In this document: positions 771 to 30,261 of the stretch, piece after piece
How the letters are laid out: every line of letters starts with the position of its first letter
Numbering within the stretch: position 1 is the first letter of the stretch
Source of the DNA: Amphiscolops sp. MND2022
Lineage: Eukaryota
Length of the DNA: 64,000 nucleotides
NCBI GenBank assembly: GCA_964187785.1
Contig: OZ076409.1
Location: 23,128,001 to 23,192,000, forward strand
Reading direction: 5' to 3'
Made by a program: the position numbers and the translations under genes
The notes under the pieces: model-generated
What the model saw: only the letters and a program-made list of their open reading frames with translations
What the model was told of the DNA's origin: nothing
Database searches by the model: none

Positions 771-794
771 TGAAATGCAGTTTCAATTGTCGGC

Positions 795-795
<1 letters not shown>

Positions 796-828
<33 letters not shown>

Positions 829-2896
829 AGGGCTTCGTGGATATGCCACCGGGGAATTATACCCCGCTATTACAATCTAGGATTGGCACGACAGTCCACA
901 CATAAGCAAATAAATATCCAAGTACAGGGATTGTTTTCAGTATAATGTCTGTTAAAATACCTCCACGTATAATCAAGTAGTTTCTTCTTGAGATTCTCCG
1001 GGTTGAAGAAATCGAGAGATCTTTGCACGACGTTTATTCTGAATCCAATTCTGTACCAAAATTTCTGCCTCTGTATTTCATATCTAGTGTCTGGAAGCAC
1101 AACACGTCTCCATCTACCGCTGTTTGTGATTTTGAATTCTTTCGAAAAATCCACATTGTATCTTCCTTCCAGTATGTTACTGAAAAATAAAAAGTCTTTG
1201 AGCACTTTAAAGTAGAGTGGTGGTTATAGGTTTGATTGGACCAAACCATCCTTATAATCCAAATTCCCGCAAATCCACTTCAAAACTTTTTTGTTGAATG
1301 TTTCAATGATTTTGAAACTAGTTTTTCTTAGTTCCCAGCATTCGGATGCAAAAAGTAACGACGCTGTTATTATTGTTCGGTCGATAACTGGTCACCTACT
1401 CGCACTTTCTGTGTTCTTCCCAATAGGTAGTCTTGTATTAGCTCAAATAATGCCTTGGAGATGGGAATTTGCAGCAACTTTTTCATCAGGATACTATACT
1501 TTATTTTATCAAACACTTTAGAGAAGTCAAATAGGACTAATAAATTAACAGAGTCTCTCGAGCTCAAGTGTGAGTAAATATGAGTTAGGCAGTATAATTG
1601 CAGTACAACTGAACATCTTGGCCTGAAACCAAATTGGAAACTACTTATTAAACTAGCAAACGCAGTACAAATTGGTGCAAGGATGAATTTTTCAAATGGT
1701 TTTCAGATTATGTTCAGGAAAGTAACTGGCCTGTAGTTCGAAACTTCTCTTTTGTCACCATCTTTTTATATCGGACTGACAATTCCAGTCTTCCATGCAG
1801 ATGGAAATTTGCGCAATCGCTTGATATTATTGAACAAATTTCGAAGGGACGTAGCGATTGATCCACCGCATTTCTAAACAATATGGGTGGTATCGAATTG
1901 TGACCTCTAATCTTCGAGGTGTTAAGTGACCGCAGCTCTGCTCTGTTTTTATCAAATCTTCCGTTGTCTTGATGTCATTTTCGCCGTAAATATGCTGTTC
2001 GCTTGGTTGGAAGTATTCATAATCATCGTCAGTCACTACCGTAGCAAAGTAATTGTTAAAAAGGTTTGCCTTCTCAAGATCCGTGGTAGCTTCCTTTTTC
2101 AAGCTCTCGGTTTTTTTAACTGGCGGTAGACTGTCCCTTTTCAGGCTTTTGAAATATTTGAAAATTCGTCCTTTGAGTCTGCTGGCAAAAACCTTTTGTT
2201 CGTAATCCACTCTGTCATTTGTTTGCAGTTGATCACATTCTTTAGTTAGCCTTTTCAGTTTTTCAGACGTACACAGTCCTTTTTTTCCGCAGTTTTCTTC
2301 CCTCTGTTTCAATCATGTTCATGTGATATGATGTCCCAGCAGATGTCCATGCAGGCAGTAGTTGCCAGTTTTTAGTTCGGATAGTAACATGTTTTTCGAT
2401 CAATTGAAAAATCCATTCATACCAGAGATTCGTGTTAACATCCACATTGCTATAGCAGCACGGTTCGAATGGATTGGCAATGATATCTTCATTCAACGCA
2501 TCGAAATCACAATTGCAGTAACTAAAGTATCTCGTTGACAATTTCTCTGGAACTTTACTATTTATGGACACATTGATGGCGATAGGAAAATGGACTGAGA
2601 ACCGAGATAGCTTTCCGCACAGCTTTGTATCATTATTGATTGAAACTTCATTGCAAAACACAAGGTCAAAACAGCTTTTCTTTTTTGTATTGAAATCAAT
2701 GTATTGTTTTAAGTTCAAATCGAACACCAGCGAAGCGATCTGATTTTCATAATCATTGACAGAGTCGTAGGAACTCCATTTAGTGCGAGGCATGATGAGG
2801 TCACCGGTAAAAAAGAGACGCTTGGAGCACGTTTCTTCAAAGAAGCGGAATACCTTCTGTAAGTCCTCAATAGATATCTGGTATTTGCTGGATCCA
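796..2896 (-). mobile_element. Decayed LINE copy 2 (endonuclease remnant plus RT), internally deleted, with (TAA)n tail
   Basis: Fragments CFDLVFCN (APE end), KANLFNNYF, a NYRPV-like motif (~1725-1740), DFSKVFD and RTQKVRVG, plus a C-terminal NPCTWIFICLC. A junction at ~1380 skips the QG/YADD core. (TAT)n on the + strand at 796-827 reads as a 3' microsatellite tail. Confidence 0.8.
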
Positions 2897-2989
2897 AGTT
2901 GTTTCGATCCTATTCAAAAATTTGGTATGTCGACCTGAAGACTAACTCTGATTTTCGATCCCGTTCCTTCGACCTATTTCCGCCCACCC
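2897..2989 (-). mobile_element. Truncated copy of ~350-bp MITE family A (one terminus only)
   Basis: Reverse complement of the GGGTGGGCGGAAATAGGTCGAAGG end seen at 18389, 18757 and 37688. Confidence 0.8.
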
Positions 2990-3024
2990 AACTCATTGAT
3001 GTTGTCGAAAAACTCAACTAAATT

Positions 3025-3500
3025 TTTAGGCGAAATGACCAAACGGGAATAACGTCTAAATAATCATGTTTCGAAAAAGGCTTTCTGAAAGCGAAAATAT
3101 CAAAATGTGGGGCATATGCGGTGTATGCACACTCGCCCTCACCGTCGCAAAGACCAGCTCCCACTACGATCGCTTCGCGATCTCCGTTCCCGCTAGGTCT
3201 TTGCTCCTGTTCGACCTCGCTTAGCAAGATGGAACATAAGCGGCCCCAAGGGGCCGCGGGGCACTAGAAGGAATGGGACATATCCGAGGCACGTTTTCTA
3301 TTTTATATCACTTTTTAGTTTTAGATCTTAAACGATTTATTTGTTTTCCAATTTCATGTGTTTTTCACGTTTCTGAAAAAAAATTAGGCGAAGTGACCAA
3401 AGTAAAAGACGTTTCGCCTAAAAAAATTAGGCGAAGTGACCAAACACGTTAGGCGAAATGACTTTAGGCGAAATGGCATTAGGCGAAATGACCATTTCCC
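3025..3500. mobile_element. MITE-like element with TAGGCGAA(A/G)TGACC subterminal repeats and shared core B
   Basis: About six copies of taggcgaa(a/g)tg(a/g)c, ending in ...gaccatttccc at 3500. Its interior 3118-3288 matches 18988-19160. Confidence 0.6.
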
Positions 3501-4243
3501 ATTTGTACAATGCCTTTTAGTAATTATCCTCCAAACGATAATTGAATCAGTCACCATGATGATAAGAACACGCGGTAGTAAAGCCTCAGTTTAAGAGGCA
3601 ATTGAGACAATTGCGTGCTAAAATGACTGGTGCTTGCGGTCATACTGGATCAAACATGAATAATTAAACGCCGATTATCACCCGTCACGACTGTAGCCAC
3701 CAGTCGTCAAGTGCAATTAAACAGCAATTAGTAAATCGAATGTCATTGGCTAAAAGCAAAGGTGCTAACACACCTTTATAGTTACACAATCGGGTAAAAC
3801 CGAACTCACTCACAAGTTGTAACCATTGATATAACCAGTTGCCTACTACCTTGCTTACGAGTTGTCAATCCTTATTTTAACATTAAAACATTCCAATTCA
3901 ACTTAAATTTCCAGACTTTTCATGGTAATTACCAGATCTCAAAGTAGTCAAAATAGACAAGTAGAAACTGAAAATATGGATAGATCAAGCGATAACGAAA
4001 GTGTAGCCAGTTTCCCTGAACTTTTATCCAGAGACCAAATGGTAGACCTTGACTCTGACGACGTTTTAACTAGACGTCAAAACAGTAACAGTTATAACAT
4101 TGACCAGCGATTTAATGAGATAAATAGACAAATCGGAGACCTTATCAATATAGTCCTTACACTGACCAATCAGTTTGCCTCCGTTAATGGAGAAGGGAAC
4201 AGACTGAATCCAGCAACTACAAGTACTGACGGTCGTTCCGACA
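3501..4243 (+). repeat. 5' LTR of Gypsy 1 (3' 743 bp only)
   Basis: Near-identical to 17316-18058 (about 5 mismatches seen by eye). Ends ...TTCCGACA immediately before the PBS. Confidence 0.95.
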
Positions 4244-5461
4244 TGGTGACAGGAGTCTCGAACCCACGACCATCAGGATCTCGAACAACACCACCCAACG
4301 GGACACCAAGGAGGACTGACGAAAGTATTCCGCAGATAGCAGATGTGATGACGGAAATCCACCATCTCCGCAGTACAATGGGGGAAACCTTGACCCATCC
4401 AAAAATCCTGCAGACCCAAGTACCTCTATTCAAGGGAAATCGAGACAAATACAATGAATTCGAGCATTTATTGCTCAACCACTTACGACCACATGCCCAC
4501 AAACTAACCGAAGAACAAAAACTCAACTACTTTCAGAGTCTTCTCAGAGATGACGCAATTGAGTTTTGGCAAACCCTAACAATCACGACAGAAACGACAC
4601 TGAGAGATATACTGACGGCATTCAAAAAAGAATAAGCAAAGGAACAACTCTCAGAAGTCTCGAAGTTCAAATTCGACCACCTACGATACGATCCGGCCAC
4701 TGAGTCATTCAGTACCTTCCTCGCCAATTACAAAAAGATTGCCAAACAAGCCTACGGCGAAAAGGCACAGAAAATTGTCCAGACCTTCCTATTTGCCAAA
4801 TTACCGATCCAGCTCCAAAACGAACTGGCAATTGCAGGAAAACACAATGCCAGCATTGAAGACATCAAAACATTCGTCCAGAGAAGATGTCAATATGCCC
4901 AGTAACTACCAAACCAACAACTCCTCCAACCGTTCAACCAAGCTATCCAGACACAAGAAGTCCCAAAAAAGCCAGTTGTTCAGAAGAGGAACGAAAACGA
5001 ACGACCAACAATCAAAAAGAAATTCGATGGCAACTGCAGATACTGCGCAATTTACGGACACAAATGGGCTGAGTGCCGAAAACGACTGCGTGACGAAGCA
5101 GCGGGCAACAACAACTCACAACCTCAGAAAAAAGCCCGAACAGCAAAATAACAACGCAGAAACACAACCAAAATACAATGCCAAACTGGTCTGCCAAATT
5201 TGCGGATATACAGGTCACTCCGCAAAAGACTGCCGTTACAGAATACCCCAAACCTCCGCCTACGGAAGCGTGCCATACAATAGGCAAACCACAAATTAAA
5301 ACAGGGACCTCCGACGCGACTTCCGAAGAGCACACAACTACCCTTACCCAGCAAATGAAATGAACGAACTTGCACCAGGGGACCAACAACAGCAAACCAG
5401 TGATGACTACTACCAACAGGAATTCACCGAAGGATCATCCAGCCAGCCAAAAAACTTCTGA
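3922..5461 (+). pseudogene. gag: gag of Gypsy 1, disrupted
   Basis: Starts MVITRSQ inside the LTR. Capsid-like region VPLFKG...FEHLL...EFWQ. CCHC knuckles CRYCAIYGHKWAEC (5035-5076) and CQICGYTGHSAKDC (5192-5233). In-frame stops at 4633, 4903 and 5297, and a frameshift near 5130. Confidence 0.9.
4244..4256 (+). promoter_or_regulatory. Primer-binding site (TGGTGACAGGAGT), most similar to a tRNA-Leu 3' end
   Basis: TGG directly follows the LTR-terminal CA. One mismatch to the usual tRNA-Leu(CAG)-type PBS TGGTGTCAGGAGT, so tRNA identity is tentative. Confidence 0.7.
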
Positions 5462-8400
5462 AGCCACGTCATCCGACTGACTATTACAATAACAAAGTGC
5501 GCAACATGAACAACTACTACTACACAAAGAACTACAAAAACCGGGCAACTGATCTTCGGCAGGATCAGAAACCTAAGGCTACAACTACCCACGAAACAAC
5601 CAATGACAAAGTGAACCCTCCCTCCGAACCAACGGACGTGAACTTACAAACGACAGAAGACAAACAGCACTCTAACTCGACTACAACGACTGACTGTACA
5701 AGGAAAACAATGAACCGAAAGAAAGACGTGGCGATCCAGGTGTTAACAGCAACACTCCAATTAAACAAAAAGGACAAGATGTTGTACGTCCCATTGCAAT
5801 TCCGAGAATACGAGAACCACGGACTCCTCGACACAGGAGCAATAAGAAGTGCAATGTCAGAAGACGAACTCAGACGAATCCTGTCTGCACACCCAGCCGC
5901 ACTTCTCGAAGAGTACCCAGCACCGGACTTCAAAGTCCAAATCGCAAACGGAAGCATCGTCCCGGTCCGGAAACAGGTACTACTTCGCTTCTTCATCGGA
6001 GGTAAAGTATTCGAGGAAACCTTCATGATTCTTCCAACCATGGATAACATCTTGATCGGAATGTCATTTTTCAAAAAGTATTCAGTGACACTTGACCTTG
6101 CCAACAACGTAGTCAAGTTCCCGGATATTACCCTGCAACTGAAACCAGAACGAGGACGATACAAAAATCCAGATGATCAAATTACGAACGACACAGAAAA
6201 CAGTCATACAACCGGACCACCAAATCATTGTCCCCGTCCTAGCAGAAAGGGACCTCGGGACAATCCAGGGCACAGTGGAAACCTTTCCTGCCTTTGAAAG
6301 GAAGACACAATTACTGGTGTCCCCCGCCCTAACGCAAATCACTGAGAAGAAAAGCCATGTCCAGATCACCAACCTCACTTGCCATACAATTACCCTCAAC
6401 CCGAACACGACAGTGGCCACCTTCAAAATAATGACTCCCAATCAAGCAAAAAACCTACAATCAATGTCAAACGAACAATTGACACTAATAACCAAATACC
6501 CGGACGAAGCCAACAACGTACTGAACCAACTGTTCCAGGAACCCGGCACTGAAACCAACCGCAGATGGTACCCAACCCCGGAGACATGTGACGACCCGTC
6601 CAAGCTGAACCGCATTGAAAGGCGGATATATGACGAAATCACTCAACTCCGTGAAGAAGAGAAACTGGACCCAACAGCAGACGACCAACAACGCAAGGAG
6701 TTCCTTGCTAACTTCAAATGGGAGAACTCAATCCTGAATGAACACGAACAACAACAAATTGAGAACCTCCTTGTGAAGTACAACAATGTATTCGCCAGAC
6801 ACCGCCTCGACATAGGCATCAATACTGACTTCAAAATCAAACTCACTCCGAAGCATGATGAACCAGTCTACGCGCAGAGCTTACCTACACTCACCAACCT
6901 CAAAGATGACCTGCTCGTCGAACTAGCGCTGATGCAAGAGTACGGGATCATCACGACGTTGCCGTACAGCAAGTATTCCTCACCAATATTTGCCCAGCGC
7001 AAACCCAATGGGAAACTTCGCATTCTTGTAGACCTGCGCAGAATCAACCACCTCTTGAAAAATGATTAAAACCAACATAATCATCCAGTCACCACCATCG
7101 CCGACGCCGCCCAGCACATGGCAGGGAAGAAGTACTTCTGCAAGCTGGACTGCTCGCAGGCGTACCACTGTTTGCAGATGGCGGATGAACAATCCATACA
7201 ACTCTTGGCATTTAATTTTGGAAGTCGAACCTTTGCTTATCTACGACTGGCACAAGGACTCAACCGATCCCTATCAGCATTCAACAGCACGGTGCGAGAA
7301 TACGTTGATGCACTGGTGAAAGCGGATAAATGTGCCCAATATGTCGACGACATTGGGATTGCTGCCCACACTGTAGATGAGCTACTGTCAAACATTGAAG
7401 CTGTGTTCCAACAAATCCAAAAAGCAGGACTGAAATTGTCGATGTCAAAATGTGCGTTTGGCCACCCACAGATCGACTTCCTCGGGAGAAGCATCACATC
7501 AAAGGGTGTCGCCCCACTCGAAGACAAGATCGACGACTTCCTCAAGAAGATCAAATTGCCCACATCAATCAAATCCCTCCAAAGGTACATCGGGTTTGTC
7601 CAGTTCTACAGGCAGTACATACCACGCCTAGCAGAAAAACTCACCCCACTGTACAAACTACTCCAAAAAGACGTCAAATTCCAGTTGACCCAGCAGCACA
7701 AGGACATCATCTTCGAGATTAATGAAAATCTTGCCAAAGCTGCGAAACTTTCGCTGCGTCTGCCGTTACCCGATAAACAGCTTGTTATAATGTGCGACGC
7801 CAGCGAGCAGGCGGCAGGATATGTCCTCCTGATAGAAGACTATACCGAAACAAACGATGGACCACTGAAAACGTACGCCCCAGTATCATTTGGATCCCAA
7901 CGATTCACGGAGGGCCAAATGTCCCTAACAATGTACGCAAAGGAATTCCTGGCGATGCATTTCGCATTCGATGAATTCGCACACATACTCTGGGGTGTCA
8001 AGAAACCAACAATAGTAATGACGGACAATAAAGCACTGACCCGATTTTTTCAGTCTAAACGGATTCCCCCGAAGCTATGGAATTACTGCGATCAGACGCT
8101 CCAATTCGAATTCGTACTTGCCCACGTTCCTGGAACTGAGAACCCTGCTGCAGACTACCTGTCTCGTCTTGACATACGACCAGAGGAAAGAATACACCTC
8201 AAACTCAACAACGAGATACCAGTCTTCCACGTCGAGATCGACCTGGCATCGAGAACACCCAAGCAGGACGAAGAAGAAGAAGAATACATACCTGATGACC
8301 AACACACTACCACCACCAAACAAAATGAAGCCATCAACGCCATCCTGGACCAGATCCCCATGTGCAGCAACGAATCGAGTGGACAGTTTCTCGAGAGGAT

Positions 8401-10254
8401 AGAAACCATCCGTCATCAAATCACACCCATCGTCACAGGGCAACATGACGAGATGACGTTCACCAGATTCAGACGAAAGCTTCATGACAACGTGGTAAAC
8501 CAGGTATGCCCCAATGGGGAGTTTCAAATCATCCAGGATCAAGTCGTAAACCTTGACATCCAACGCATGATTAGAATTTTGAACCTAAAGGAAACCCTTC
8601 CTAATCATGTGAACTTTGAAAGTCAGTTTTTCCAAAAACTAGTTAAAAACAAGAAAAGACTTGAAGTAGTGAGCAACGTTTTGTACAGGAGTTTTTTTGA
8701 TGGTACAGGTGAAATCAAGTGTAAACAAGTTGTCACTCCCCCTGAAACCATTCGGAAAATCATTCAATCCCTGCACGATGACCCTCTGCAAGGTCACCCT
8801 GGCTGTAACAAAATGCTCCATGAACTGCGTAAAAGGTACTACTCACCAAACCTCTCTGAACTGGTACTGCAATACGTCTCGAACTGCCAGGACTGCATCC
8901 GCGCAAAACCAATCCGAAAAGCTGCAATCACACCACCACTTCAACAAATATACGACCCCTGCAACGGACCAGAAGACATACTAGAAATCGATTTAGTCGG
9001 TGAACTCCCACCTTCCAACGGATGCACACACATCCTCACTGCATGCGACTACTTTTCTAGGTACCTCTTCGCAATACCAATCCGTAAACCGGACACAAAG
9101 TCGGTCGTAGAAGCACTCATGCAAATCTTCACGCAGCACTCGTATGTACCCAAAACAATCTTAACTGACAAGGGAACGACATTCACATCTCAACTACTCA
9201 ACGCCCTGATGGAGTCTGCCGGTATAAAAATCAACACGCCTCTGTAAAGCACGCACAAACGATCGGGATGGTTGAACGTTCACATCAAAAACTGAAACAA
9301 ATTCTCAAAATCAACATCTCAGCTGATTCACCACAATGGCACAAATACGTCAACATGGCCGTAATGGCCCATAACACAACCTACCACCAGGCTATCCGAT
9401 GCACACCCACTGAAGTTTTCCACGGACGTGTTCCGTTCAATGCCCTTGACGTCAAATTTGGCCATCCATTAACCGAACAACGTAACACCACTGACGTCAC
9501 TGGAATACTAGATAACATGAACAAAAAATTCCAACAAACACATGACAACATAATCGAAGCCTTTCACAAATACAAGAATTACTACGACCGAAAAGCGCAA
9601 GCTTCACCTCTGAAAGTAAATGATTTCACCTTTCTGCTAAACAAAAGACTGTCTCAGCAATCTGAAAAAATTCCTTTCAAGGAATTCAAGTGGGAAGGCC
9701 CATACAAAGTGGTCAAAGTCTTGTCAAATTCAAATTACATCATACGTAAGATTGGCACTCTTCGCACCCAATGCGATCACAGAATGAGGCTTCGCCCATT
9801 CACGCCAAACGCACCAATCGAAGACATTCAAGACAATGCATCACAATATTTCGAAGATCCTGACGCCCTCAACGAGCAGGAGTTATTTGACAATAACCTA
9901 CCTGATCATGTCCATGAACAGCCACAACAAGTAATACCTGAACAATCAAACTTCGAAGAGTTACACGCAGACCATGGAATGATCTACTACGAACGGCAAA
10001 ACATAGAACCTGATCAAAACATCTCCATACCTGAAAGCCAGGCTGAAACACAAGAACCACAACCGGATAATGCTAGCATGAACAATTCTGAACACCAAAC
10101 AAATGATCGCCCTCCAGCGCCATCACGACACACCATGTCTCGATACGGGCTCAGACACAACCCAAAACCTACCACGTACCCTGATTTCTTAATGCACGAA
10201 TTACATGGTACGCCTTCACTGCAACAGTTACTTCTGAAAAACAGAAACCTGTAA
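5449..10254 (+). pseudogene. pol: pol of Gypsy 1 (aspartic protease, RT, RNase H, integrase), disrupted
   Basis: Motifs LLDTGA; RILVDLRRIN; YVDD; CDAS...KEFLA...TDNKAL...ADYLS; H..GH..C..C; integrase core EIDLV...TDKG...VERSH. Frameshifts at ~6165 and ~9237, stop at 7067. Confidence 0.96.
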
Positions 10255-11998
10255 AACACCCATCCCTCATTGCATTTCTCAAACCAACGACTGCTAACAG
10301 CAGTCATAAACAGTCTCGCTCCTTGACCGTAAAAGTAATTGTTTTACAATTACGACCCTGTATACCAGTACTCAACAAGCAGTATTTAAAATTCCGGACA
10401 ACCTAGCACACAATCCAATTAATACGATTAAATGACCATCCACTTCCGTCGTCACTGTTTGAGCTGTCTAATTACTTAGCGTCAACTACTACGTAAGAAG
10501 CAAACAAACGGTAACGCAACGACTGCAAACGCCAATCATCCCAACACTTGCGGCCCAGAAGCACACGTAGCACGCAAAAATTTGAACGATAATTTATTCA
10601 ATTCTCACCAAAACTACCACTTCAACAAACGAAACGAAACACTTCGCTTAGAAAACCGTCGAAACACAACTAACGAAACGTGAAAGAAAACAACGTTCCC
10701 TACAATCGCAACAAACTAACAGTGACGATCTGCTGCCTGGAAAACGTTAAGACAACACAACCAATACTCCACCCATTTCGACTTAAACCCATAGTGCTGG
10801 CTGTGTGGGTGCGTCGTCGAAAAGCGCGCTTGTGTGGTTGGTCGTCACCATACAGATGAAGGTTGCTCTTTAGCAACTGGATTCAGTGTTAGTTTTGCAT
10901 AGGTGGTTCCGACGGGAGTTCACCTTTTCCAATGAACTGAACACCAAAAATAACAAACCAACCATAGACGATAACACAACGCCGGTAAAGAACAAGAGCT
11001 TGCCAAATTCAGAAAACAATGAATACCCGACCCCTTAAAAGTAACCACATATGCGAAGGCTTCGCCTCGCTTGGGAAAAGATTCAGGAGTGCGCGGCCCC
11101 AACCTCTGCTTAGTATTAAAATCTACACACACCCATAGTTCTCAGTCTAACAACTTCCTACCACCGAAGTTAACATAATGTAAGAACTCGCGATCTTGAC
11201 GACACACATCACGTATGATGACGTCCCAGGACACACATCAACGATGATGACGTCGCGTACACAGACCGCTACATGTAATATATTGAAACACACTAAAATA
11301 CATGTAAAATAGTCCCTAAAAATTATAACATGAATATTACATACACACAAAATAAGTCATGCATCAAACCAAGGATACACTCCTTGAGCCTTCCGTCATC
11401 GTAATGAACAAGCTGCTCAGTCAAGTACCTTACAGTGCGGCGCTAAGGACTGGAAGGCCATGGTCTGAATGTCTCGTTACCATTCTCGAGCCTTCACTAA
11501 CAACTTACATGAAAACCTGGCTCTCGAGTACCATGCACAGCACAGTTTGACGCGTGAAAAAAAATGTTTATGCTAATGGTTACCACAGTGACAACCATAA
11601 CCAACATGAACTTCCTCAATAAATTCCCTGAACACGCCGTAACAATTAGAGCGTAAGTCCACTCGAAACCATAGCGAAGTATGGGTTACCCCATACACAC
11701 ACTTAAGAAAGACAAAGCCAGTCCAGCATCATGCATAAACGTACATACAAGCAAAACAAGTGAAAAACCTCTTGTGACGTCCGAACTGTCCAGTCCTAAG
11801 GAAAAACAAAGAAGAGTACTATGACGGTTGCAACCATCTAATTAAATCACTAGAAAGTGCAAGACCTACTAAGGCCAAAACAAAAAAAATTGCAGCCTAT
11901 AAAGCAAATCACAATATCAGGACTCAATAAATACACAAAAAGCTGAATACACAAAGAAGTATGGAAAGTCTGATTACTAATACAAGTCCTTCTGCCAA

Positions 11999-14900
11999 CT
12001 AATACTCTGTAGAACGGCTGGAGCTGCCCTCGTTACTGCTTTCTTCGAGTGAAAAAGCCCGCCTGCTGGCTTGTACAATTTCAGTCTCAAAGGTAGCCAG
12101 AGTGCGCTTCCCTTTCTTGTCCGGCTTCCCACCGGTCCTCCGTCCGTGATTGCCCCCTGACGTCCTACTGACTGCTTTGCGCTTCGGAGCTGACTCACTC
12201 GGACCTGCTGACGACACTACGACCTCGGATTGCAATTTCGGCGCTTGAGCTGCTGAACGCCTTGATTTGACAGGACTCCGACGGGGAGCAGTTGGACTCG
12301 ACTCCATTGTCCGCAACTGATTACAAACAGCAGACACATAATCGTCAATGACAGGGCGAGTAGGTAGTCCACCAGTCGTCTCCAGTACTGTGACACAGCG
12401 CCCAAGCGATTCATAAACCCCCCTCTTAACCAATTGGTCCCAAGGGATAGCTCTGCCTTCATCGGTTAACCGCGAAACCTGCATGTCTGTAGTGCCGCAG
12501 TGTCTAACAAATCCAATCATCGAGAGTCGAGAATGCCCGCCGAAACCACTCGACATCCAGCTTCGAATAATGTTCAAACTTGACAGCATGATATCGAGGG
12601 CTGTGTCTCCTACATCCTGAAAATCAGCAGCATACGAATCATGGAGCATTCCCACAAAAAGAATCTCCACAATGCCCCGGAATTCTTGGCACCGGTCCCA
12701 CGAAGGATATGACAGCCACAAAGACATGGCATCGTCAATAACTGGCACCACCGAAGCATTGGACTCCCATCGATGCTTGAAGTAGTTGACTACCTCGCGA
12801 TACTGCTGCAAGATGATGGCACCTTGATCTCCTCTGCATAGATCTCCAAAGCTGAGGACAGAAAGTGTACCCACAAGGATGTCTGTCAGCCGATCCATTG
12901 ACACCGACTGTATAGCATAAGGATCCAGCGGCAACAAGCTGAGGTGCCTAACCCACCCTTGGTCATAATCGCCAATGCACGACTCGCACACAGTCCTGAG
13001 GAAATTCTGCACTTCTTTATAAAAGAAAGGCTTCTGGCTGACCACGTCGAAGCGGAAGTACTGGCCGAACAGCACTTGAAATCGGGCCTTGTCAACAGGC
13101 TTACTCTCGCCCAATCGCAACTTCAACACGGCGAGGACTTCAAAATCAGGTGGTAGCGATGAGGGTTCGACGACCAGAGACAATAACTCCCGAAGGAAAG
13201 CAGCCAGCTCCCGCTCGAACCAGAAGTTCCGATCTCGCCCAGCAGAACACAAGCGAGGACACTTTGCAACAACTGAAACACACAGGCGAATCACAACCAA
13301 AATGTTGAAAAACTACACACCCTAGCAACTCAGACGTCGATAACACCCAAATCCACAATTACAACAAAACTAGTACCGACACACCCGTACACAAGTAACA
13401 CTCAAAACTCTTATACTGACCTGTCTCTGCCAGAAATTTCAAAACTGCAAATCGCGGCCTCGACAAAGCATCGTTGAAGACTTGAGTTTCCATACTGGCT
13501 ATACTCCGCGTTTCGGACACAGTATTTGACCGGTGAACACCGAAGTAGGCACCGAGGTCGTCCCATCGCTCCACAAGTTCGGTGCACAGTGCCGACAACT
13601 CCTGGAAGCGCGCAGCACCACCACGGACGAACTAAAACAAAATTAGCACCGAGTTAGAACGAAGCAGACCACGACCACACATTACCACACATACTCACAC
13701 CAGTCCCCGAAAAAAAAATGCGCTAACAAACTTAAAATCAATTACCTCTCGAAGCCTTGGCATATTGTCAAACGACGAACCACCGATGACGGCGGCTAAA
13801 CGGAACCGGAAATACTCCAACACGCAGAAGGGTTCCAGTCCACTCAACTCTCGCAGAAACGTGCGCCGCAGCAAATCCTTCAGCCAGTCCACATCGAGAC
13901 GACGGGTAACCAAAGGTATGGCTGGGTGCGCGATGCTAGCTAAAGCACGCCCAAGACGCAGATTCTCTCCCACACTCACAGCACACAGACCCGCATGAGA
14001 CTCCACACAGGCCAGAAAAGAGACAACGATCTTGAGTAGTGAGCGTTCCCACTCACCACCACCAGGAATAGCAGCTAGCACAACCATCTTGACTGTCAGA
14101 GCGTCAAAAATGTGGCAATTCACCCGCTTCAACGACCCATCAGTGCGGACGTGCAGACCAAACCGCGCCCCAGCAGAGAGTAGATCGCTCAGTTTCTCCA
14201 TGACAAATGGATACAGGCCGTATAACACAAGACTCTACAACAAACATACAACAGTGACACTTCTCAGCAAGTACTGCCAACGAAAACAGTAAGCAACTGC
14301 AAACACGAACTAGCAGACAAGAACCAACATTCACGAACAAAACATGTATTACCTGACATTTCGGGTATGATAGCACCCTCTCACTGAAAACCAGCTCGCC
14401 CCGCATGCTACTGGACCACACTTCCATGGACCGCACAACGCTCGAAAAGTCCCTCAGTTCAACAAAGTTATTGATGAAGCAGCATAGCCAGAGGTAAGAA
14501 CTGGACTCCGACTACTCGGGTTTCGAACCAGCTGCCTCCTCTTCTAATTCAACTGCAATCCGCTCTTCAACAGTCAGCTTCACCTCTGACTCCAGAATGA
14601 CAGGTGGCTCTGACACTCTGGCTGCCCGAATTCTCCGATCCTCGTCCAATGACACGGGCCTACAGGACTTGTCCAATAGAGGCCTATTAGACATGATGCG
14701 GAAGCGCTGCTCAAGACGAGTGTGCTCTCGCCCTTTCCAATGATCCCACAAGTTGTGTAGCCTACGTCCGGCAATGCTTAAATCAACGCGGCACAGTCGA
14801 CACCTTGCGAACCCGTCCACCACACGTTTGTTTCGGGGAAACCAACGAAGGTCCCCACGACCCCAGAAACGAAGAATGAGGGTTTCAACGTTTTGATAGC

Positions 14901-16160
14901 ACGTTTCCGTCCTGCTAACACACAACACAAATCACTTAGCACCACTGTCCAGCCAAAACCTTCCAAAAACAAAAAAAACGTGTTTGTCCTTAATCAGTAG
15001 TAGTACGTTACATACACCTCTTATTTCTTTGTTTACCACCTAAAACTAAAACCCCTCACGTGATCTTTTGAGAGTTCTTACCAGGCTTTGATGTGGAGGC
15101 AACAGCGGACGAAGTCCCCCAGAAGGAACGACGCTCTTTTCTCCAAACTCAGACGGCACATCAGATTCCACTGCCGCACGACGATCGTCCACACCAGAGA
15201 TGCTCCCAGCTACGGAGCGTGGTAGAGAAGAAGTCTCACCACCACGGGGAACGAGAGGAGCTTGACCCAGTTCTCGCAACGCTTCCTTCATTTTGTCCAG
15301 GAATTCCTCGACAGCCAGAGCACCCACTGTCCCTAGCCGGCCCAAACTAGACTCGATTGCAGCCTTCAACCACTGCTGAATTTCCCGTTCTACACGTTGA
15401 AACAATTCAGTGAACTGCCCCACAATGACATCAGCTCGAACGTTGGCATCTGCAAAGTAACCCTTAGTTCATAGCACCTACTTTGGACTCAACGACTGAA
15501 GGCATCTATCACCGCCTGGTTAGAGAACAGCAACCGTATACTGCATGCATTGGTATTGAACAACAAAAGAACCAAAAGACCCCCCAGCAGATAACTTAAC
15601 TTCACAGTAACCGTGAATTCACCTACCAAGTTGCGATGTCAGAAAGGCATCCAGTCGACGAAGGATGGGCGCCGCCTCCGTCTCAGAACCCTCAGCAGTT
15701 CCAGTGGCTATCGAAGCACGAAAGCGACGTAAATAACTGACCACGTCGGACATGTTGACATCAGCTACAAACACGAGAACACCCTATTTAAAATGCTACG
15801 CCTGACACTCCCTAACATTACGGGACTCAAACTTGAAAGTATGCAAACTTGAAGGAAAGACTTAACTCTCCCTTACGCTTTAGACATACCACTGATAGTA
15901 GTACAATATAGGAAGTGAGCACTTACCAAATTCCTGGGAGAGAACGACATCCAATAAATCGCTTAAACCAGCGATATTAGCAGAAGATACCCGAGCCGCA
16001 AACTGACAGCAGTAACTAGTCTCCAGCAATAATCCTGATAACTCCAGATCGCCTCCACTTCCACCTAGCTGAGCCCCTCTCCGGCCATCTGATTCTCCAC
16101 TTCAGCGACTAACTCAGCTAATCCGGGACCAAAGGACTGACCTGCCTCATCATCAGACAT
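11999..16160 (-). CDS. Antisense 7-exon cargo gene in Gypsy 1: zinc-finger protein derived from a hAT-type transposase (this copy has lesions)
   Basis: Predicted exons 16160-15927, 15764-15627, 15449-15060, 14911-14353, 14234-13746, 13631-13421, 13272-11999, all GT-AG with compatible phases. Zn finger at 14802-14722. Stop at 14512 and probable frameshifts near 16075 and 14830. Confidence 0.78.
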
Positions 16161-16962
16161 ATTGGATAACGCTGGGAGAAAAGGAAATAACTGAAACTCT
16201 CCGGGGAAATAATAATCGGCGACGAAGACACGACTGCAAAAGCTCATTCTTCCATTTATTGTTGTTATAGACTGATCACCTATTCCAATATACAATGGAT
16301 ACCTGATCTCCTCATCAAACAGTTTTACTCTAGTAAAACTGGACATTCAAGGAACCATATTTTTGGACCTACTTCCACCAGACATCAAATGCTAATTACA
16401 AGAAGCAGAAAGAAAGCAGTCGTATTTCCCGGCCAAAAAAGACTAATTCCCCGAACAATCTTATCAGTACAAGCGATACCCGAAAAACACAGGACTAACA
16501 GTGCAAAAAACAAAACATGGACATATTTTCATCATTGTGGAAGAATGAGCTAAAGGTTGACAAACGGAGGTGAATACTCTCAAATTAAAGCGGGATCAAA
16601 TTTCAATTCAAACAGTAATTGACTCGACTGACTTTCACTATGGCAACACAACAAATCAATCAACTGCCGATGATCGATGAAAAGTTGCTTAAACAAACAT
16701 CACACTCAATGCGCACTACACGGATGACGTGGCTGTCAAACCGTTTCTATAAATAGACTTCAACTTCCGACTACCTACTATTTGCCTGCCTCACCTTGTC
16801 CATTCACGCTTCCGAATGTTTCCGGAAGCTACATTGCCACCCACGCGTTTCTCTATACCTTGCAGGCCACTTCAGCCGCTGTTCAATACTCCACTCAGAT
16901 ATCTGCTACCTCTCAACTCGACCGTTCACCTTACCCATTACCCCTACAGCCTGCTCTCTCTC

Positions 16963-16976
16963 AAAAAGGGGGGGAA
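16963..16976 (+). promoter_or_regulatory. Polypurine tract
   Basis: AAAAAGGGGGGGAA immediately precedes the TG start of the 3' LTR. Confidence 0.9.
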
Positions 16977-18058
16977 TGTCATGCCCGCCAAGCGTGAAGG
17001 AATTAAACGAACTCTAAAACATTAATTTATACATCAAACTCCCTAAAATACAGATCATCATGAAAATACATTGCAGTAATTTATTCCCCGAACAATACAG
17101 TTGAGAGTATAACGACTGGAACTAACAGTCATCAATACTAAATTCATTCATATTATTGTGCATCGTTTAGAAACCAAGACTGAAACAATCAGTCATCAGC
17201 TATCGTGATAGTTTGTGATTTAATCATTCTTCATCCATTTTTTATATTACATGTAAAGTATTACCAGAATATTCAATCATTCATAACAACTACATTTCGT
17301 TCATTCATATTAGCAATTTATACAATGCCTTTTAATAATTATCCTCCAAACGATAATTGAATCAGTCACCATGATGATAAGAACACGCGGTAGTAAAGCC
17401 TCAGTTTAAGAGGCAATTGAGACAATTGCGTGCTAAAATGACTGGTGCTTGCGGTCATACTGGATCAAACATGAATAATTAAACGCCGATTATCACCCGT
17501 CACGACTGTAGCCACCAGTCGTCAAGTGCAATTAAACAGCAATTAGTAAATCGAATGTCATTGGCTAAAAGGAAAGGTGCTAACACACCTTTATAGTTAC
17601 ACAATCGGGTAAAACCGAACTCACTCACAAGTTGTAACCATTGATATAACCAGTTGCCTACTACCTTGCTTACGAGTTGTCAATCCTTATTTTAACATTA
17701 AAACATTCCAATTCAACTTAAACTTCCAGACTTTTCATGGTAATTACCAGATCTCAAAGTAGTCAAAATAGACAAGTAGAAACTGAAAATATGGATAGAT
17801 CAAGCGATAACGAAAGTGTAGCCAGTTCCCCTGAACTTTTATCCAGAGACCAAATGGTAGACCTTGACTCTGACGACGTTTTAACTAGACGTCAAAACAG
17901 TAACAGTTATAACATTGACCAGCGATTTAATGAGATAAATAGACAAATCGGAGACCTTATCAATATAGTCCTTACACTGACCAATCAGTTTGCCTCCGTT
18001 AATGGAGAAGGGAACAGACTGAATCCAGCAACTACAAGTACTGACGGTCGTTCCGACA
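16977..18058 (+). repeat. 3' LTR of Gypsy 1 (1082 bp, TGTC...GACA)
   Basis: Follows the PPT, has TG...CA termini, is followed by TSD TGCAC, and contains a copy of the gag N-terminus (ORF 17737). Confidence 0.96.
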
Positions 18059-18388
18059 TGCACCAATTGAGCCTTAGATACAGATCCGACTCTAGACGTT
18101 CACGTCTTGTTTGAAAACCGCCGACTAATAACAAGAAATGGTCCAAGTCGGCGCCCTGTTAAAAACAGGAAGAGCAAATTTGTTACATGTTCAGGGATAG
18201 TCAAGAAAGCGTACGTTCGCACCGGAGGCCTTCACGGAGCAGGAGTGTTTTTTTCCGTTTTTTTCTCTCAGATGACACAAATCGTAAGTAATCTGGTGCG
18301 ATGTATGGCATCAAGTAAGGGGGAGGGGATGGCAAACACCCGTAGTCTGCAAAAAAAACAAACGATAGGCGCACTACTATTTCTCATG

Positions 18389-18738
18389 AGGTGGGCGGAA
18401 ATAGGTCGAAGGAATGGGATCGAAAATCAGAGTTAGTCATCAGGTCGACAATACCAAATTTTTGAATGGGATCGAAACAACTCGGATCGAAATTTTTATA
18501 ACGTAGTCAGATATGTTCACATACCCCTAGTGCCCTGAATGCAGGAGCGAAGCGAAGCGGAGCGACGTGCCATATGGCCATGCCTCAATGTTGCTACTTC
18601 GCGAAGGGAGCGAAGCCACCGAGCCATACAACAAATACGATAAAATTCGACCGCATTCCATTCGATCCCTGTAATTCGATCAAAAGGTTCGACCTCAGTC
18701 CTTTCGACCAGAAAAATTCGACCTATTTACAGCCACCC
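18389..18738 (+). mobile_element. Complete 350-bp MITE family A with 9-bp TSD (Mutator-like)
   Basis: Imperfect TIRs (A/G)GGTGGGCGGAAATAGGTCGAA and TTCGACCTATTTACAGCCACCC. TSD TTTCTCATG at 18380-18388 and 18739-18747. Confidence 0.9.
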
Positions 18739-18756
18739 TTTCTCATGCCAGCCACT

Positions 18757-19498
18757 GGGTGGGCGGAAATAGGTCGAAGGAACGGGTTCGAAAATCAGAG
18801 TTAGTCTTCAGGTCGACATACCAAGTTTTTGAATGGGATCGAAACAACTCGGATCGAAATTTTTATAACGTAGTCAGATATGTTCACATACCCCTAGTGC
18901 CCTGAATGAATTCCGGACGTTTCGGCAAAAAAATATGCCGAAACGTCTCAGGCTAAAAAATTTGCCGAAACGTCTCGCATGATATATGCGATGTATGCAC
19001 GCTCGCCCTCACCGTCGCAAAGACCAGCTCCCACTACGATCGCTTCGCGATCTCCGTTCCCGCTAGGTCTTTGCTCCTGTTCGACCTCGCTTAGCAAGAT
19101 GGGCATATAGGCGGCCCCAAGGGGCCCCGGGGCACTAGAGGAAATGGGGACATATCCGAGAGGGGAACAGGACGTTTCGGCAAAAGACGTTTCGGCAAAA
19201 ACATGGCGGCGGACGTTTCGGCAAAAAAATTTGCCGAAACGTCTCGGATTTCTTTTTTTGCCGAAACGTCTTTGCCGAAACGTCCTGTTCCCCCCTGAAT
19301 GCAGGAGCGAAGCGGAGCGGAGCGACGTGCCATATGGCCATGCCTCAATGTTGCTACTTGGCGAAGGGAGCGAAGCGATCGAGCCATACAACAAATACGA
19401 TAAAATTCGACCGCATTCCATTCGATCCCTGCAATTCGATCAAAAGGTTCGACCTCTGTCCTTTCGACCAGAAAAAATCGACCTATTTACAGCCACCC
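18757..19498 (+). mobile_element. MITE family A copy interrupted by a nested element
   Basis: Both TIRs are present and the copy is split at 18908/19293. Its outer flanks (ccagccact and tgattaaat) do not form a TSD. Confidence 0.88.
18909..19292. mobile_element. Nested foldback-type MITE with GACGTTTCGGCAAA repeats and core B
   Basis: 9-bp TSD CCCTGAATG at 18900-18908 and 19293-19301. Palindromic array at 19162-19292. Confidence 0.85.
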
Positions 19499-19748
19499 TG
19501 ATTAAATCACAAACTATCACGATAGCTGATGACTGATTGTTTCAGTCTTGGTTTCTAAACGATGCACAATAATATGAATGAATTTAGTATTGATGACTGT
19601 TAGTTCCAGTCGTTATACTCTCAACTGTATTGTTCGAGGAATAAATTACTGCAATGTATTTTCATGATGATCTGTATTTTAGGGAGTTTGATGTATAAAT
19701 TAATGTTTTAGAGTTCGTTTAATTCCTTCATGCTTGGCGGGCATGACA
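19499..19748 (-). repeat. Displaced, inverted 5' end (250 bp) of the 5' LTR of Gypsy 1
   Basis: Reverse complement of 16977-17226. The outer flank GTGCA (19749-19753) is the reverse complement of TSD TGCAC at 18059-18063. Confidence 0.93.
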
Positions 19749-20877
19749 GTGCAGTTTTTGAAATATGCGCAGGACGTGTTCATGAAACACTCTTGTTTTC
19801 GAACCTCCACCTCCTTTTTAATAAAACGCCATATAGCTCGGATAGTATTCAAAAAATTATATTGAATAAATATTGACAAAATTTAATATCACCCAAAAAT
19901 GAGAATTTTGAAACAAGTCTCGAAGTGCCGCTTAAATTGAAAGTTAGTTCATCGAAAGGAATAAATTTTGGTGGTTTCTGTAAAAAGTGGACCTTTCAGT
20001 GTGACGTCTGTGGTCTGGAGTAAAAAAAGGTCACTGTGAGAGTCTGGCAATTTTTGCTTCACAAAAAGCACTGACTATAAATTGCCCAATTTTTACAGTG
20101 GGTAGTTTTTGAAGACACGTAATGTCCATTTTTTGTTCAACTTCAACTACGGATTTCTCAAACATATTCGAAACGTCGGAACCTTGTCCAAAATTGAACC
20201 GACGTCCAGAACCTCGGAAACATACTAAGAATCCCTACTTTGGCTATCTTGGTTTTTTAACTAAGATTTTTTCGGCACAATAAAACCTTCTTTTCGACTT
20301 TTTCTCTCGTTATTTTTCAACAGAATTGATGGTAAAAAATTCCAAATGGTTCCGCCTTTCACATTTTTCGGCACTATCAAAATGTTCAAAATTCTCACTA
20401 AGAATATGTGAGAATATAATGTTTTATCTGATATAGTGTTTTCTCAAGAAATATCTACCGATAATTTTCAATACTATCCGGATTTTGAATGTCGAGGTTC
20501 GAAAATTTTGCGGTATATCCAAATTTTTGACGTTATATCCGAACTATGTTGCGTTTTGCTAAGGAGGAGGCGGAGGTTCGAAAACAAGCGCTCCCATGTG
20601 TCCCAGCACGCTGTATCCGAACTTTGAATGTTATATCCGAAGTATTTTGCGTTTTACTGAGGAGGAGCCGTAAGATAAGAAAAAAAGCGCTCGTATTTTT
20701 GTCTCAGCACGCTGTTTCCGAACTTCTGAAGTGTTTTCTGAGCACTAAAGGCTTTGTGTGTTTCAAAAAAACTTGAATGAATTTTTCATTGAAAAAACGT
20801 CCTGAGTATATATTTTAAAAGTTTGCGCTTTTTGAGCCTTAGGTATAGCGCCGACTTGAAACGTTCCCGTCTTGTTC
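19749..20877. repeat. Interspersed repeat family D (terminus ...GCGCCGACTTG..CGTTC.CG.CTTGTT)
   Basis: Similar termini occur at 18064-18111, 18130, 46060, 47208 and 53401. Internal gttatatccgaa repeats. Reading from the TSD leftward on the minus strand gives the inverted counterpart of 20780-20830. Confidence 0.6.
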
Positions 20878-21035: not shown

Positions 21036-21391
21036 AGTAGTTAAGATTTCCGCCGGCCTTTCAACGGGGGGGGGGGTCCTCGGTTTTCACGGGGTGGGTC
21101 CTTGCTCTGAAATTTTAGGACCTATCCCTAAAAGGAAGGGGTCCTTCCAAATTGGTGTTCGGAAATACTTCGGCTTTTGACTACGAAAGTAAATTATTGG
21201 TCGGATTCTTTTTGTATTCGTTTTTTGGATTCTTTTTGTATTCGTTTTTGGAATCGGATTTTTGCGAAAGTACATGTAAAAGCGTAGACACTCTTGTTTA
21301 TTCTTTGAATGTCTGAAAGTTTGGAAAGTACTAACCTTGAAATTTTGTTGTAATTGAATTGTAAAGCTGGATTGACTAATACTGGTACAAC
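21036..21391 (+). repeat. Left TIR of Polinton (~356 bp)
   Basis: Near-perfect reverse complement of 37766-38122. Confidence 0.95.
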
Positions 21392-21711
21392 TTTCTTGTA
21401 AATAAAGGGAGTGGTATTTCCAACTTTCTTATCTGTATGAACACTTAATATTATTAGGAATAGTAATATGCGTTCCTCCAAATGTAGTGGTAGCGGTGTT
21501 CTTATTTCTACCTGTAAAATATCTTAACGTCACAACAAATTCGTTTTGAATCTACATGTTGTTGCTAACCCCTGACCTACCCAAGTTAAATTTAATATAA
21601 CTGTAAACCACCATTCTTCGTTTCAACTCTTGTTTGAAAACAAAATGAATTTCACAAATTCAAGCTTTATTATGCTGTTAACGTTATACAAAGAAAAATT
21701 AGTGAATGATA

Positions 21712-24700
21712 TTACTGTAATTCATTATCAATATAAAATTTGACTTTTTTCTGAGGAGGGGGACCACGGGTGGGAACTTCCACTGCTTCACAGTCTAAAA
21801 ATACATTTGGTTGGGTATTGGGTAAGTCTTCTTCGAAATCAGACAACTCTGTTAGGTCAATAACGTCTGGTAATTCACTTTCTTCTATTGCATCTTGATT
21901 AAGTCCAGGGTCGGGTGGGGAAAATAAAGCTGGTTGGTTGGAGTTTGACTGTATCGGTGACTGAATAAAGTCCTCCTCCTCGTCCCCCCAATCGCAATCC
22001 GCTCCAATTTCTCTGAATATTACGTCGTCTCGCAAAGAATAATGTCCAAAAGGTAAGGTATCAACGCCGTTTCGCATTATATATCTTTTATCGTCAAAAC
22101 AGCTTAGAGAAATTTTTGTCGTCTGCAAGGTAAACAGATTATGTCTTTCACTATTTATTGTGTAGTTTAATGTTCTAAGTAGTGTTTCTTTTTCGAGAAT
22201 TCGATAAAATACAGAGTGTTGTAGGTTCTTTTGTGCATGTTTGGTGGTTCCTTTTGCAGGAATTTTTTGTTGATCACCCATCGCGATTGAATACAATTTT
22301 GATTTTAGTGCAACAATGCTGTGTATGATTTTACCACCAACTTCGTCTTTGAATTTCAAAGTTTCCAACTTTTGATGTTTGGAATATAGTTGATTATCTT
22401 CTTTATAGTTTGAAAAGTCAAACTCTGGGTGCACTTGTTCGTTTTCTTTGAGGTCAGCGTATATGTCTTCCGATTCGATTTCATAAATTAGGGAATCTGT
22501 ATCGGAGTAGAGCACTAATGTTCGGAAGTTTGGTTTCATGTACATGTAATGAAACCAGTACATATGTCGTTTAGATAAATCCAAGATGGTAGCGCCGACT
22601 ATCGTTGGCTTGTCCCAGTAAATTTTGCGCTGTGCAAACGTTATGGCAGCCAACTGGTTGTTGAAAATCTTGAACGTTTTCATCCACATTTTGCTTGTTT
22701 GCTTTTGCAACTCATCTTGCGTGCGGACAATCTCAATGGACAATCGTTTTCTTTTACTTTCCATGGTTTTACCAAAAGCAGAGTTGCTCATTAGTTTGAA
22801 AAAGTTTTCTTCAAACTTGTTTGTAGACGCTTTTCGTTTCATTGTGTTTAACTGTATATATGGCTGAAGCCATTTTGACTGTTCAAATTGCAACACTCTA
22901 TGTACTTTGGTAACTTGTAACCCCAGTTCACAGTATAATTTCAATGTCATGTAATGTATAGTATAATTGGTTTTGTCGTAGAGTGTTTGGATCAACTTTT
23001 TGTTTTTTGTTGAAAAGGTCTTTGTTCCACTCATTTCCAGCAATCGTGTTTGATATTCACCGAGCCAAAAAAAATTAATTGTTTCCTTCGTAGGAGCCAA
23101 AGGGAAATCAGTGTGTAAATCGTGCAAATGATCAGGATAATGCAAGTCAACTTCCAATACATATCCAACTGGTGAGTCATTTGGAGTATTTAGTATTTCT
23201 TGTAGGTCAACTTCGCCTTCTCTTTTCAATACAAAGTTTTTTAAAGGCAAGGGGAACTTTTCCATGATTCCTCCATACAAGTTGTTTGCATCAATAAACA
23301 ACCCAAATGTTTGCTTCTGTGAAGAGTTGTATGTTGGTAGATATTTGTTATTTGCTTCAAATTTGCGTTTTGCAAACACGGAAGAAATTCCTACGCGGAT
23401 TAGGTTTTCAGCAACTTCAAGGTGTTCTCGATTAGTTAGTAATTCGATATCTGCGTTGCACACTTTAAGGAAGGCTTCACCGGACAAATTTGACGCAGTA
23501 TAAAAATGAGCACAATCCAGTCCGTAAGTTGCATAACACACTTTTCTAAACTCTTCGAATACCGAGGCCAAAATCAAAACATCGGTGTGTAAATATAAAT
23601 CGTGATAGTGACCTAGTGTTTTGCAATCAAACTCTTGGTATACAAGACTAGCATGTTGTAAATCCTGATCACTAATTGTGACTTCACCCCCTGCGAGAGT
23701 GTTTTTCCAAAACTCTTTTGGGGGAAGCTTTTCCTCGGCAAATTTATCGAAACTGTCCATGTATGAATAGGGATAAACACCTTTCCTTTTCAGCAAGTCA
23801 ATTTGCGACGGTGTTTTGTATGTATTGAATTGACTCTCCAGATAAATGAATTTATCCTGTGGTAAGAAACCCGCCAGTTTATCTAGTGACTGGGGCATGA
23901 ACTTGAAAGAGTCCAAGAATCGCATGTCTTCATATACATTTTTTGTCATTCCATTCTTGTCAGTATATGAGTTTACCCACACAGAAAATGTGAAGGAAAT
24001 GTACTTTTCGTCAGTTGTAGGAATAACTGAAAACTTGTTCTTTGGATTACAATTGTTGATTGCCGAACAAATGTGGTGTATATCATATCCAGCCATGTTG
24101 TGTGCTATCACGGGGGTGAAGTTTATTGACTTCCTTTGTAGATTACATTCTGAATGTGCCCACCCTAGGAATGTACCACTGTAATGACAATGGTCCAACA
24201 CTTTCTGCTCGTCATTCGTGAAAGGTTTTTTACAAATCCAACAATCATTTACAGTGTCTTTGTGCGTCGAAGGCTTGCCCTTGTAAATTCGGTGACTTTG
24301 TTTTCTATGATAAATGTCTGTTGCCAATTTTTCCAATTCTTTTATTAAATCGTCCAAGCAATCGGGACCTCGCATGATTCTGTAAGACAAAACTTTATCA
24401 TTTCCATGTTCTACAATTACAAAAGCATAACCACAAGGCACATGTTTTTCCAACTTTACTTGACTGCTAATACTGGGTGAAGGAGCGCATGTAGATAAAG
24501 GCACTAGGAGCGCTTCAGTATCAAGGTAAATAACCAGTGGAACAAACCAAACTGCTCTTGTATTTTTGAATTGATGTATGTTTTTATGCTCATCGGGTAA
24601 AATGATCGCCGCGGCCTCGTTTTCGTAACAGTTGAGCTTGTGTATTTCGAAACTCCCGGTTGAACTACAAATATGAAAACAGTTTCTGCAAATTTCATCC

Positions 24701-25879: not shown

Positions 25880-25944
25880 TTGGAAAGTCGAGTGTTCCTC
25901 AATGTTGAGATTGAGAAAATGTTTTTGCACTTCGCTCCGATCAA

Positions 25945-26192
25945 TTAAGGAGGTGATTACCATTTATGGTATCCCGAGCGACTGAATTCTTTGAATTCTG
26001 ATTCGATCACTATTTATGGTATCCCAGGTGCCATTTTTACCAGGAAAATTGTTTGCATGTTCGACTTTTAACAAGGCGATAACCAATTATGGTATCCCGA
26101 GAGACTGGATTTCTTTAAATTTTGATTCGACCACCTTTTACGGTATTCCAGGCGCCATGCTTTTTCCAGGAAAATTGTATGCATGTTCGACT
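25945..26192. repeat. Two diverged ~125-bp direct repeats upstream of polB
   Basis: tatggtatcccgag...ccaggaaaattgt.tgcatgttcgact occurs twice. Confidence 0.75.
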
Positions 26193-26251
26193 AACTTTTT
26201 TTGTTTCCGTATATTGACTGCTGGGCATTATAGGGGGGGGGGAGGAACGGG

Positions 26252-29787: not shown

Positions 29788-29817
29788 GAATAAAAATGCT
29801 TGAAATTAAACATTAAA

Positions 29818-30258: not shown

Positions 30259-30261
30259 TTT

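Follow-up and report, generated by a model that had tools for sequence, protein, structure and literature searches.

Natural inversions in animals have mostly been ascribed to ectopic recombination or to the repair of breaks, and alternative transposition has been documented mainly in plants and in laboratory stocks, according to the available sections of the relevant reports (10.1101/2021.03.08.434479, PMC2775673, PMC12312487). One form of alternative transposition, reversed-ends transposition, predicts that transposon termini mark both junctions, that one element comes to lie within the inverted segment and the other outside it, that the intervening DNA is lost, and that the junctions have a common new target site duplication (TSD) (10.1101/2021.03.08.434479, as described in its available text). 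In the sequenced Ac/Ds inversions from rice for which the available text gives data, the TSD was kept in 11 of 11 (PMC3470690). Among MULEs, inversions and deletions at VANDAL21 and VANDAL5 are ascribed to alternative transposition in the accessible part of one report (PMC12312487), while for CitMule of the citrus Arrufatina it has been proposed that the MULE ends inserted at two targets ('dissimilar TSDs') and that the DNA between them was lost (PMC4334395, available portion). In rice, mPing lies at one or both break points of 9 of 16 variants, as given in the available text (PMC7584900). MULE-end alternative transposition (PMC12312487) and rearrangements at MITE termini (PMC7584900) are already in print, going by these same portions, and the locus described here contributes a further case that arose naturally in an animal, the mechanism itself being known from Ac/Ds, VANDAL and mPing. 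No report of cross-family end pairing or of an acoel inversion was found by title or abstract opening within an incomplete coverage of the literature, which is weak evidence.

All of the structural evidence comes from the sequence of the 64-kb window itself, i.e., the whole stretch of DNA that was analyzed. The rearranged element has an intact 3' LTR of 1082 bp (TG...CA; 16977-18058, + strand), an internal region carrying a primer-binding site, gag, pol, a 3' region, and a polypurine tract (4244-16976, +), and a 5' LTR remnant corresponding to LTR positions 340-1082 (3501-4243, +). The hallmarks of LTR retrotransposons are TG...CA LTRs, a primer-binding site, a polypurine tract, and a 4-6-bp TSD. 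All are present here, with a TGG-type primer-binding site directly 3' of the 5' LTR remnant, a polypurine tract immediately 5' of the 3' LTR, and a TSD of 5 bp. Pfam domains are arranged as protease (a match under the curated cut-off), RT, RNase H, and integrase, an order by which the element reads as a Ty3/gypsy LTR retrotransposon, and the best solved relative is Ty3-G Gag-Pol (E 2.7e-33). Gag and pol are broken into six separate frames (3907-10254), indicating that this copy is defective. The 3' region extends over 6.7 kb and contains antisense ORFs.

The initial annotation had proposed that an inversion of about 16 kb split the 5' LTR, and comparison of the LTR copies bears this out. The first 339 bp are absent at 3501, and LTR positions 1-250 lie inverted at 19499-19748 (-). 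The remnant differs from LTR 340-1082 of the 3' copy (17316-18058) at 5 of 743 bp, and the inverted fragment differs from the reverse complement of LTR 1-250 (16977-17226) at 2 of 250 bp. Self-BLAST of the window pairs the same stretches (3501-4245 with 17316-18060 at 99.3%, and 16977-17226 with 19748-19499, reversed, at 99.2%). With 7 differences over 993 sites and zero indels, the combined LTR comparison indicates a young insertion. The loss of LTR sequence, put earlier at about 90 bp, comes to 89 bp (LTR 251-339), and this stretch has no 16-mer match elsewhere in the 64-kb window.

The copy of TGCAC that directly follows the 3' LTR (18059-18063, +) recurs in reverse complement at 19749-19753 (-), where it precedes LTR 1-250 on that strand, and the 5-bp TSD recognized in the initial annotation is thereby upheld; the chance of such a 5-mer match is 7.4e-4. 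To extend this comparison outward, the two outer flanks were aligned separately against the window, with random window stretches as a control. The right host flank (18064-18111, +) aligns to 20832-20876 of a host-repeat arm that served as the empty-site reference (20515-20876, +), and 0 of 2000 random window stretches score as high as its 18067-18111 portion. The left host flank (19754-19860, -) aligns to the same arm in two parts, its distal part at 20515-20588 and its TSD-proximal part at 20784-20820, with 6 of 2000 random stretches scoring as high as the latter. Together, the two flanks cover one intact host-repeat arm end to end, with a gap between the flank matches of 11 bases in the reference and 10 bases at the site, including the TSD. 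The empty site had previously been aligned to about 20797-20848, and both flanks do match there, but the reference string quoted was one AT pair short, and the 'intact repeat', although usable as a reference, most probably represents the second inverted arm of that host element. A derivation of the inverted 250 bp by copying from the 3' LTR was considered and rejected, as what lies ahead of the fragment is host flank and TSD rather than the polypurine tract.

LTR 1-250 and the left flank are thus found on the - strand, and the + strand carries LTR 340-1082 together with the body of the element and the right flank. The matching of the flanks on opposite strands and the improbability of the 5-mer by chance show that the 15,998-bp segment 3501-19498 has been inverted with respect to the sequence from 19499 on, which is the minimum statement of the rearrangement. 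The span of 3501-19753 given initially was correct in describing an inversion of about 16 kb, but the segment ends at 19498, and 19499-19753 is outer flank. Positions 1-3500 would formerly have lain beyond 19498, with DNA of whatever length possibly lost between them.

Both breakpoints had been placed at MITE termini, and 19498/19499 and 3500/3501 do fall on GGG/CCC ends, but the two ends belong to different MITE families (M1, M2, and M3 are labels coined in this analysis). M1 is a 350-bp MITE with four copies within the window. The breakpoint copy (18757-19498, +) meets LTR position 250 with its right-hand CCC terminus. This terminus is defined by two other full copies with 8-9-bp TSDs, one at 18389-18738 (+; 9-bp or 8-bp TSD), which is intact and lies 18 bp from the breakpoint copy, and one at 37339-37688, within a Polinton. 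The fourth copy, absent from the first reading, is truncated to its left 97 bp (2893-2989, -), is inverted relative to 18757, and adjoins LINE fragments; it offers a same-family partner end or a substrate for recombination. Perfect 8-9-bp TSDs accompany two of the four copies, the others being the breakpoint and truncated copies, and the earlier observation that the breakpoint copy has no TSD holds for lengths of 5-11 bp. The inverted pair (2893-2989 and 18757-18853) shows 4 differences over 97 bp, and the longest exact match is 37 bp. Private differences number 8, 5, 9, and 2 in the individual copies and are evenly spread along the 18757 copy. Dating the copies by these differences was abandoned, given that the copy with 9 lies inside a Polinton with 99% identical terminal inverted repeats (TIRs), which also implies that diverged M1 copies may still be recent movers. 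The M1 terminal pattern had no match in the viral contigs searched; single matches, one to a bacterial MAG and one to a contig from a gut metagenome, were taken as chance.

At the other junction, the CCC terminus of the M2 block (2990-3500, +) is joined to LTR position 340. The block consists of a 33-bp spacer, a left-arm remnant, a core (3114-3288), and a right arm, and the M2 arm carries GGG, a 10-bp motif, and 12-bp repeats from positions 11, 26, and 41 (15-bp period). The terminus has no second copy in the window (the 1 match at ≤4 mismatches is itself), but this architecture, together with an in-register alignment to M3's terminal arm that was equaled in 0 of 1000 shuffles, makes 3500 a probable M2 terminus. 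Neither of the block's candidate left ends gave a TSD, the spacer (2990-3022) has no other match in the window at ≤9 mismatches and is unlike the lost part of the LTR, and the M2 terminal patterns had 0 matches in the viral, genome, and metagenome contigs searched. M3 is an insertion nested in M1 (18909-19293, +) with a perfect 8-bp (or 9-bp) TSD; it is without a left TIR, has a 175-bp core in common with M2, and ends in a complete 132-bp mini-element with GGGG...CCCC TIRs (19162-19293). The presence of a left-truncated M3 and a mini-element in the same MITE cluster suggests one-ended or repair-truncated events.

The ends of M1 and M2 have only GGG in common, and their terminal and subterminal motifs differ. 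A weak 36-bp core match between them (equaled in 8 of 1000 shuffles, and one of six comparisons made) suggests that the two may be related and may formerly have been in direct orientation. A GGG terminal motif with 9-15-bp subterminal repeats is clear in M2 and M3 and loose in M1, TSDs of MULE length (8-9 bp) occur at two of the four M1 copies and at the M3 insertion, and the MITEs appear MULE/foldback-like, of Muta1 type. The MITEs may instead derive from Merlin or hAT elements, which likewise have an 8-bp TSD. No transposase family was recognized among the 26 ORFs scanned of the 107 listed in the window. Like Muta1, a type 2 foldback MULE of Aedes aegypti, as described in the available text, the elements have a 10-bp terminal motif that begins with GGG, subterminal repeats of 12 bp set apart by short linkers, and TSDs of 8 or 9 bp (PMC5225508, PMC5499845). 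Unlike those of Muta1 in the same text, the terminal motifs here are non-palindromic, and no transposase was found in the window (PMC5225508, PMC5499845).

Both LTR junctions are blunt, and the absence of microhomology follows from the fact that LTR identity ends at the first base past each break. Each junction adjoins a GGG/CCC terminus of a MITE, whereas a random break would be expected to fall on a recognized terminus with a probability of about 9e-5 per junction (11 termini over 128,000 oriented positions; partly post hoc for M2). No common TSD of 7-10 bp was found at the two junctions, where the 8-mers differ (TTTAATCA vs ATTTGTAC) and 89 bp are missing. Blunt joints without microhomology on GGG/CCC termini indicate junctions made by transposase, a conclusion that we consider well supported.

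We regard intramolecular alternative transposition of the reversed-ends type, combined with a small end-adjacent deletion, as the probable origin of the inversion, taking two versions of the event together. The Ty3/gypsy element would recently have inserted into one host-repeat arm, about 330 bp from a MULE/foldback-like MITE cluster. Two facing MITE ends past the 3' side of the element would then have been cut by transposase and reinserted in the same chromosome, inside the 5' LTR, so that the whole stretch from the target to the right end of M1 would be inverted and the segment between the two MITE ends would be lost. The missing M1 TSD fits this predicted loss of intervening DNA. As reversed-ends transposition predicts, one element lies inside the inverted segment (M1, 18757-19498) and one outside (M2, 2990-3500), and when the inversion is undone, the three local M1 copies are all in direct orientation. 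The 89-bp loss in place of an 8-9-bp TSD would reflect either ends joined to separate targets or a later end-adjacent deletion; insertion at two targets, or a second step, is needed because there is no common TSD and 89 bp are gone.

The first version, in which the M1 right end was paired with the M2 end at 3500, is plausible but falls somewhat short of an even chance, and it has against it that one transpososome must pair unlike ends, the M1 and M2 motifs being different. The second, which we advance more tentatively, pairs the M1 right end with the same-family M1 left end at 2989, M2 having inserted separately in the LTR and been trimmed; the inversion would then begin at 2990. It is the only version in which ends of the same family take part, as in reversed-ends transposition, but it calls for an extra M2 insertion about 90 bp from the break. 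Two features that define the textbook process are therefore at issue, in that a common TSD is lacking and M1 and M2 are not of the same family, and the locus is a working likeness of reversed-ends transposition, not a proven case. The initial proposal of alternative transposition by MITE ends is sustained as to transposase-made junctions, but it did not reckon with the lack of a common TSD or the origin of the ends in two families, and it overlooked the M1 pair. The class of mechanism is likely right, and the exact event is not fixed by the window. The final sequence is identical under both versions and under the rival explanations considered below, and the LTR junctions are transposase products in all of them except an assembly artifact and an independent insertion or random breaks.

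Compared with the Ac/fAc and Ac/Ds inversions (maize p1-wwB54, 10.1101/2021.03.08.434479; rice, PMC3470690), as far as their available text describes them, the locus is alike in having termini at both junctions, one element in and one out, and a lost donor TSD. It differs from them in the 89-bp loss instead of a common 8-bp TSD and in drawing its ends from two families, and, while those inversions come from selected or transgenic lines, natural non-autonomous elements in an animal are involved here. In Arabidopsis met1, the head-to-head VANDAL21 pair likewise associates closely spaced MULE ends with a rearrangement, as does the VANDAL5 knob inversion to which the same report refers, but in the available account those are same-family elements with read support, in contrast with MITE ends in a single assembled sequence (PMC12312487). 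CitMule, in the portion of the report available, resembles the locus in that its ends became attached to two separate targets and the stretch between them was lost, although one element and a 2-Mb deletion are concerned there, and two elements, an inversion, and the loss of 89 bp here (PMC4334395). With Galileo in Drosophila buzzatii (PMC2775673) and the 120-kb mPing inversion (PMC5724284), as partially available, the locus shares a natural origin and related, oppositely oriented copies near the breakpoints. According to the accessible text, Galileo inversions show exchanged TSDs and chimeric copies and lack a deletion, features that are not demonstrable in this inversion (PMC2775673).

The comparison with Galileo bears directly on the rival that survives best, which we nonetheless consider unlikely. 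Under this explanation, a composite block of M1, spacer, and M2, bounded by the same two outward ends, entered the 5' LTR with an 89-bp target deletion, and its M1 part then recombined ectopically with the opposite M1 copy downstream of the element, in a Galileo-like exchange or by template switching, inverting 2990-18756. Oppositely oriented M1 copies do flank the segment (2893-2989, -; 18757-18853, +), and a flip at this pair restores a colinear LTR in which a single GGG...CCC block replaces the 89 bp. Precedents, as given in the available parts of the reports, are Galileo itself (PMC2775673), inversions between inverted Ds copies in 33 of 300 rice plants (PMC3239180), and an mPing-flanked inversion ascribed to template switching (PMC5724284). 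However, one event more is needed than with direct pairing of the M1 and M2 ends, unlike ends must still move together, and the homology now amounts to merely the 97 bp with 4 differences and a longest exact match of 37 bp described above. Exchanged TSDs are also not seen, the flank at 2990 (AACTCATT) differing from the LTR 8-mer TTTAATCA and the other flank being deleted.

An assembly artifact, arising from a chimeric read or from false joining of the inverted M1 copies, is conceivable given the repetitive nature of MITE clusters, but we consider it very improbable. The LTR junctions offer no overlap for an assembler to misjoin, and even if the sequence had been flipped at the 97-bp M1 pair, the MITE-in-LTR junctions would be genuine. 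Moreover, the contig separates 99.3% identical LTRs 13.8 kb apart as well as 98.6% identical 498-bp tandem repeats, which suggests long reads. We attach a similarly slight probability to the view that the inverted 250 bp come from a separate insertion or a solo LTR and match the 5-mer by coincidence, or that random double-strand breaks underwent end joining. Two of the five differences in the 5' remnant, at 3505 and 3520, lie within 20 bp of the M2 junction (P about 0.007, post hoc) and could derive from error-prone repair, as random breaks would have it. Against both forms of this rival stand the low chance of the 5-mer match, the tiling of one reference arm by both flanks, and the position of both breaks on MITE termini. 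Least likely of all is replicative or sister-chromatid (hybrid-element) transposition of one M1 that left duplicates at both breakpoints, since, although M1 sequence does lie near both ends in opposite orientation, near-identity would be expected of a duplication postdating the LTR insertion, the copies differ at 4 of 97 positions vs 0.7% between the LTRs (P = 0.005), and the M2 junction is left unexplained.

The surroundings of the inversion contain several other elements. LINE fragments occupy 1-2913 (-), with matches to RT (E 7.9e-09) and endonuclease (E 0.007) and a direct duplication of 431 bp (1-431 vs 955-1384, 93.7%). A Polinton/Maverick-like element (21036-38122) has 357-bp TIRs at 99.2% identity and a 6-bp TSD, TATAAT, and encodes an integrase (32817-33830) and an A32-like ATPase (34516-35250). 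Its 1410-aa ORF (21712-25944), which gave weak C2H2 and endonuclease VII matches and no polymerase match in the domain search, we take from its position to be probably the protein-primed polymerase. Tandem 498-bp repeats lie inside this element (26255-27677; identity 97.7-98.6%). A host eIF3a gene with many exons (38200-52320, +) follows. Of the 120 matches listed for one of its exons (38349-38681), the Convolutriloba macropyga protein has 89% identity and that of Symsagittifera roscoffensis 85%, the remaining 118 reaching no more than 68%. The window is thus animal DNA, and its host is most probably an acoel of the convolutid group. A GGG-starting element at 40605-41490 has 14-bp subterminal repeats in inverted arms, and its right terminus looks truncated.

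A second, divergent gypsy element (62151-64000, -), represented by its integrase end, runs off the window and has 40-57% amino-acid identity to the first. In its 3' region, each of the two gypsy elements carries a multi-kb, apparently spliced gene antisense to pol (11999-15468, -, and 58300-61764, +). The two antisense genes have a C2H2/BED-like finger segment in common (14515-14931 vs 59540-60163; 0 of 300 shuffles, z 12; the sole such pair of 20). Its Pfam zf-BED match is under the cut-off (E 0.1), and the 437-aa frame had no Atlas match at ≥0.9. The antisense gene may have been captured, either as a transposase-like or as a regulatory gene, and it is possibly more interesting than the inversion.

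No host gene was identified inside 3501-19498, and the inversion disrupts nothing beyond an already defective retrotransposon. Its junctions are unusually legible because the young LTR element shows which order is ancestral and gives the event a recent date. There is a rather doubtful but consequential form of the favored alternative transposition, in which a single transpososome paired the ends of two MULE-like MITE families and inserted them 89 bp apart in one step. If this were true, the locus would represent cross-family alternative transposition in an animal, and any neighboring pair of GGG-ended MITEs in this lineage could drive inversions. More generally, should MITE-end junctions of this kind prove widespread among acoel genomes, small rearrangements would readily arise from MITE clusters.
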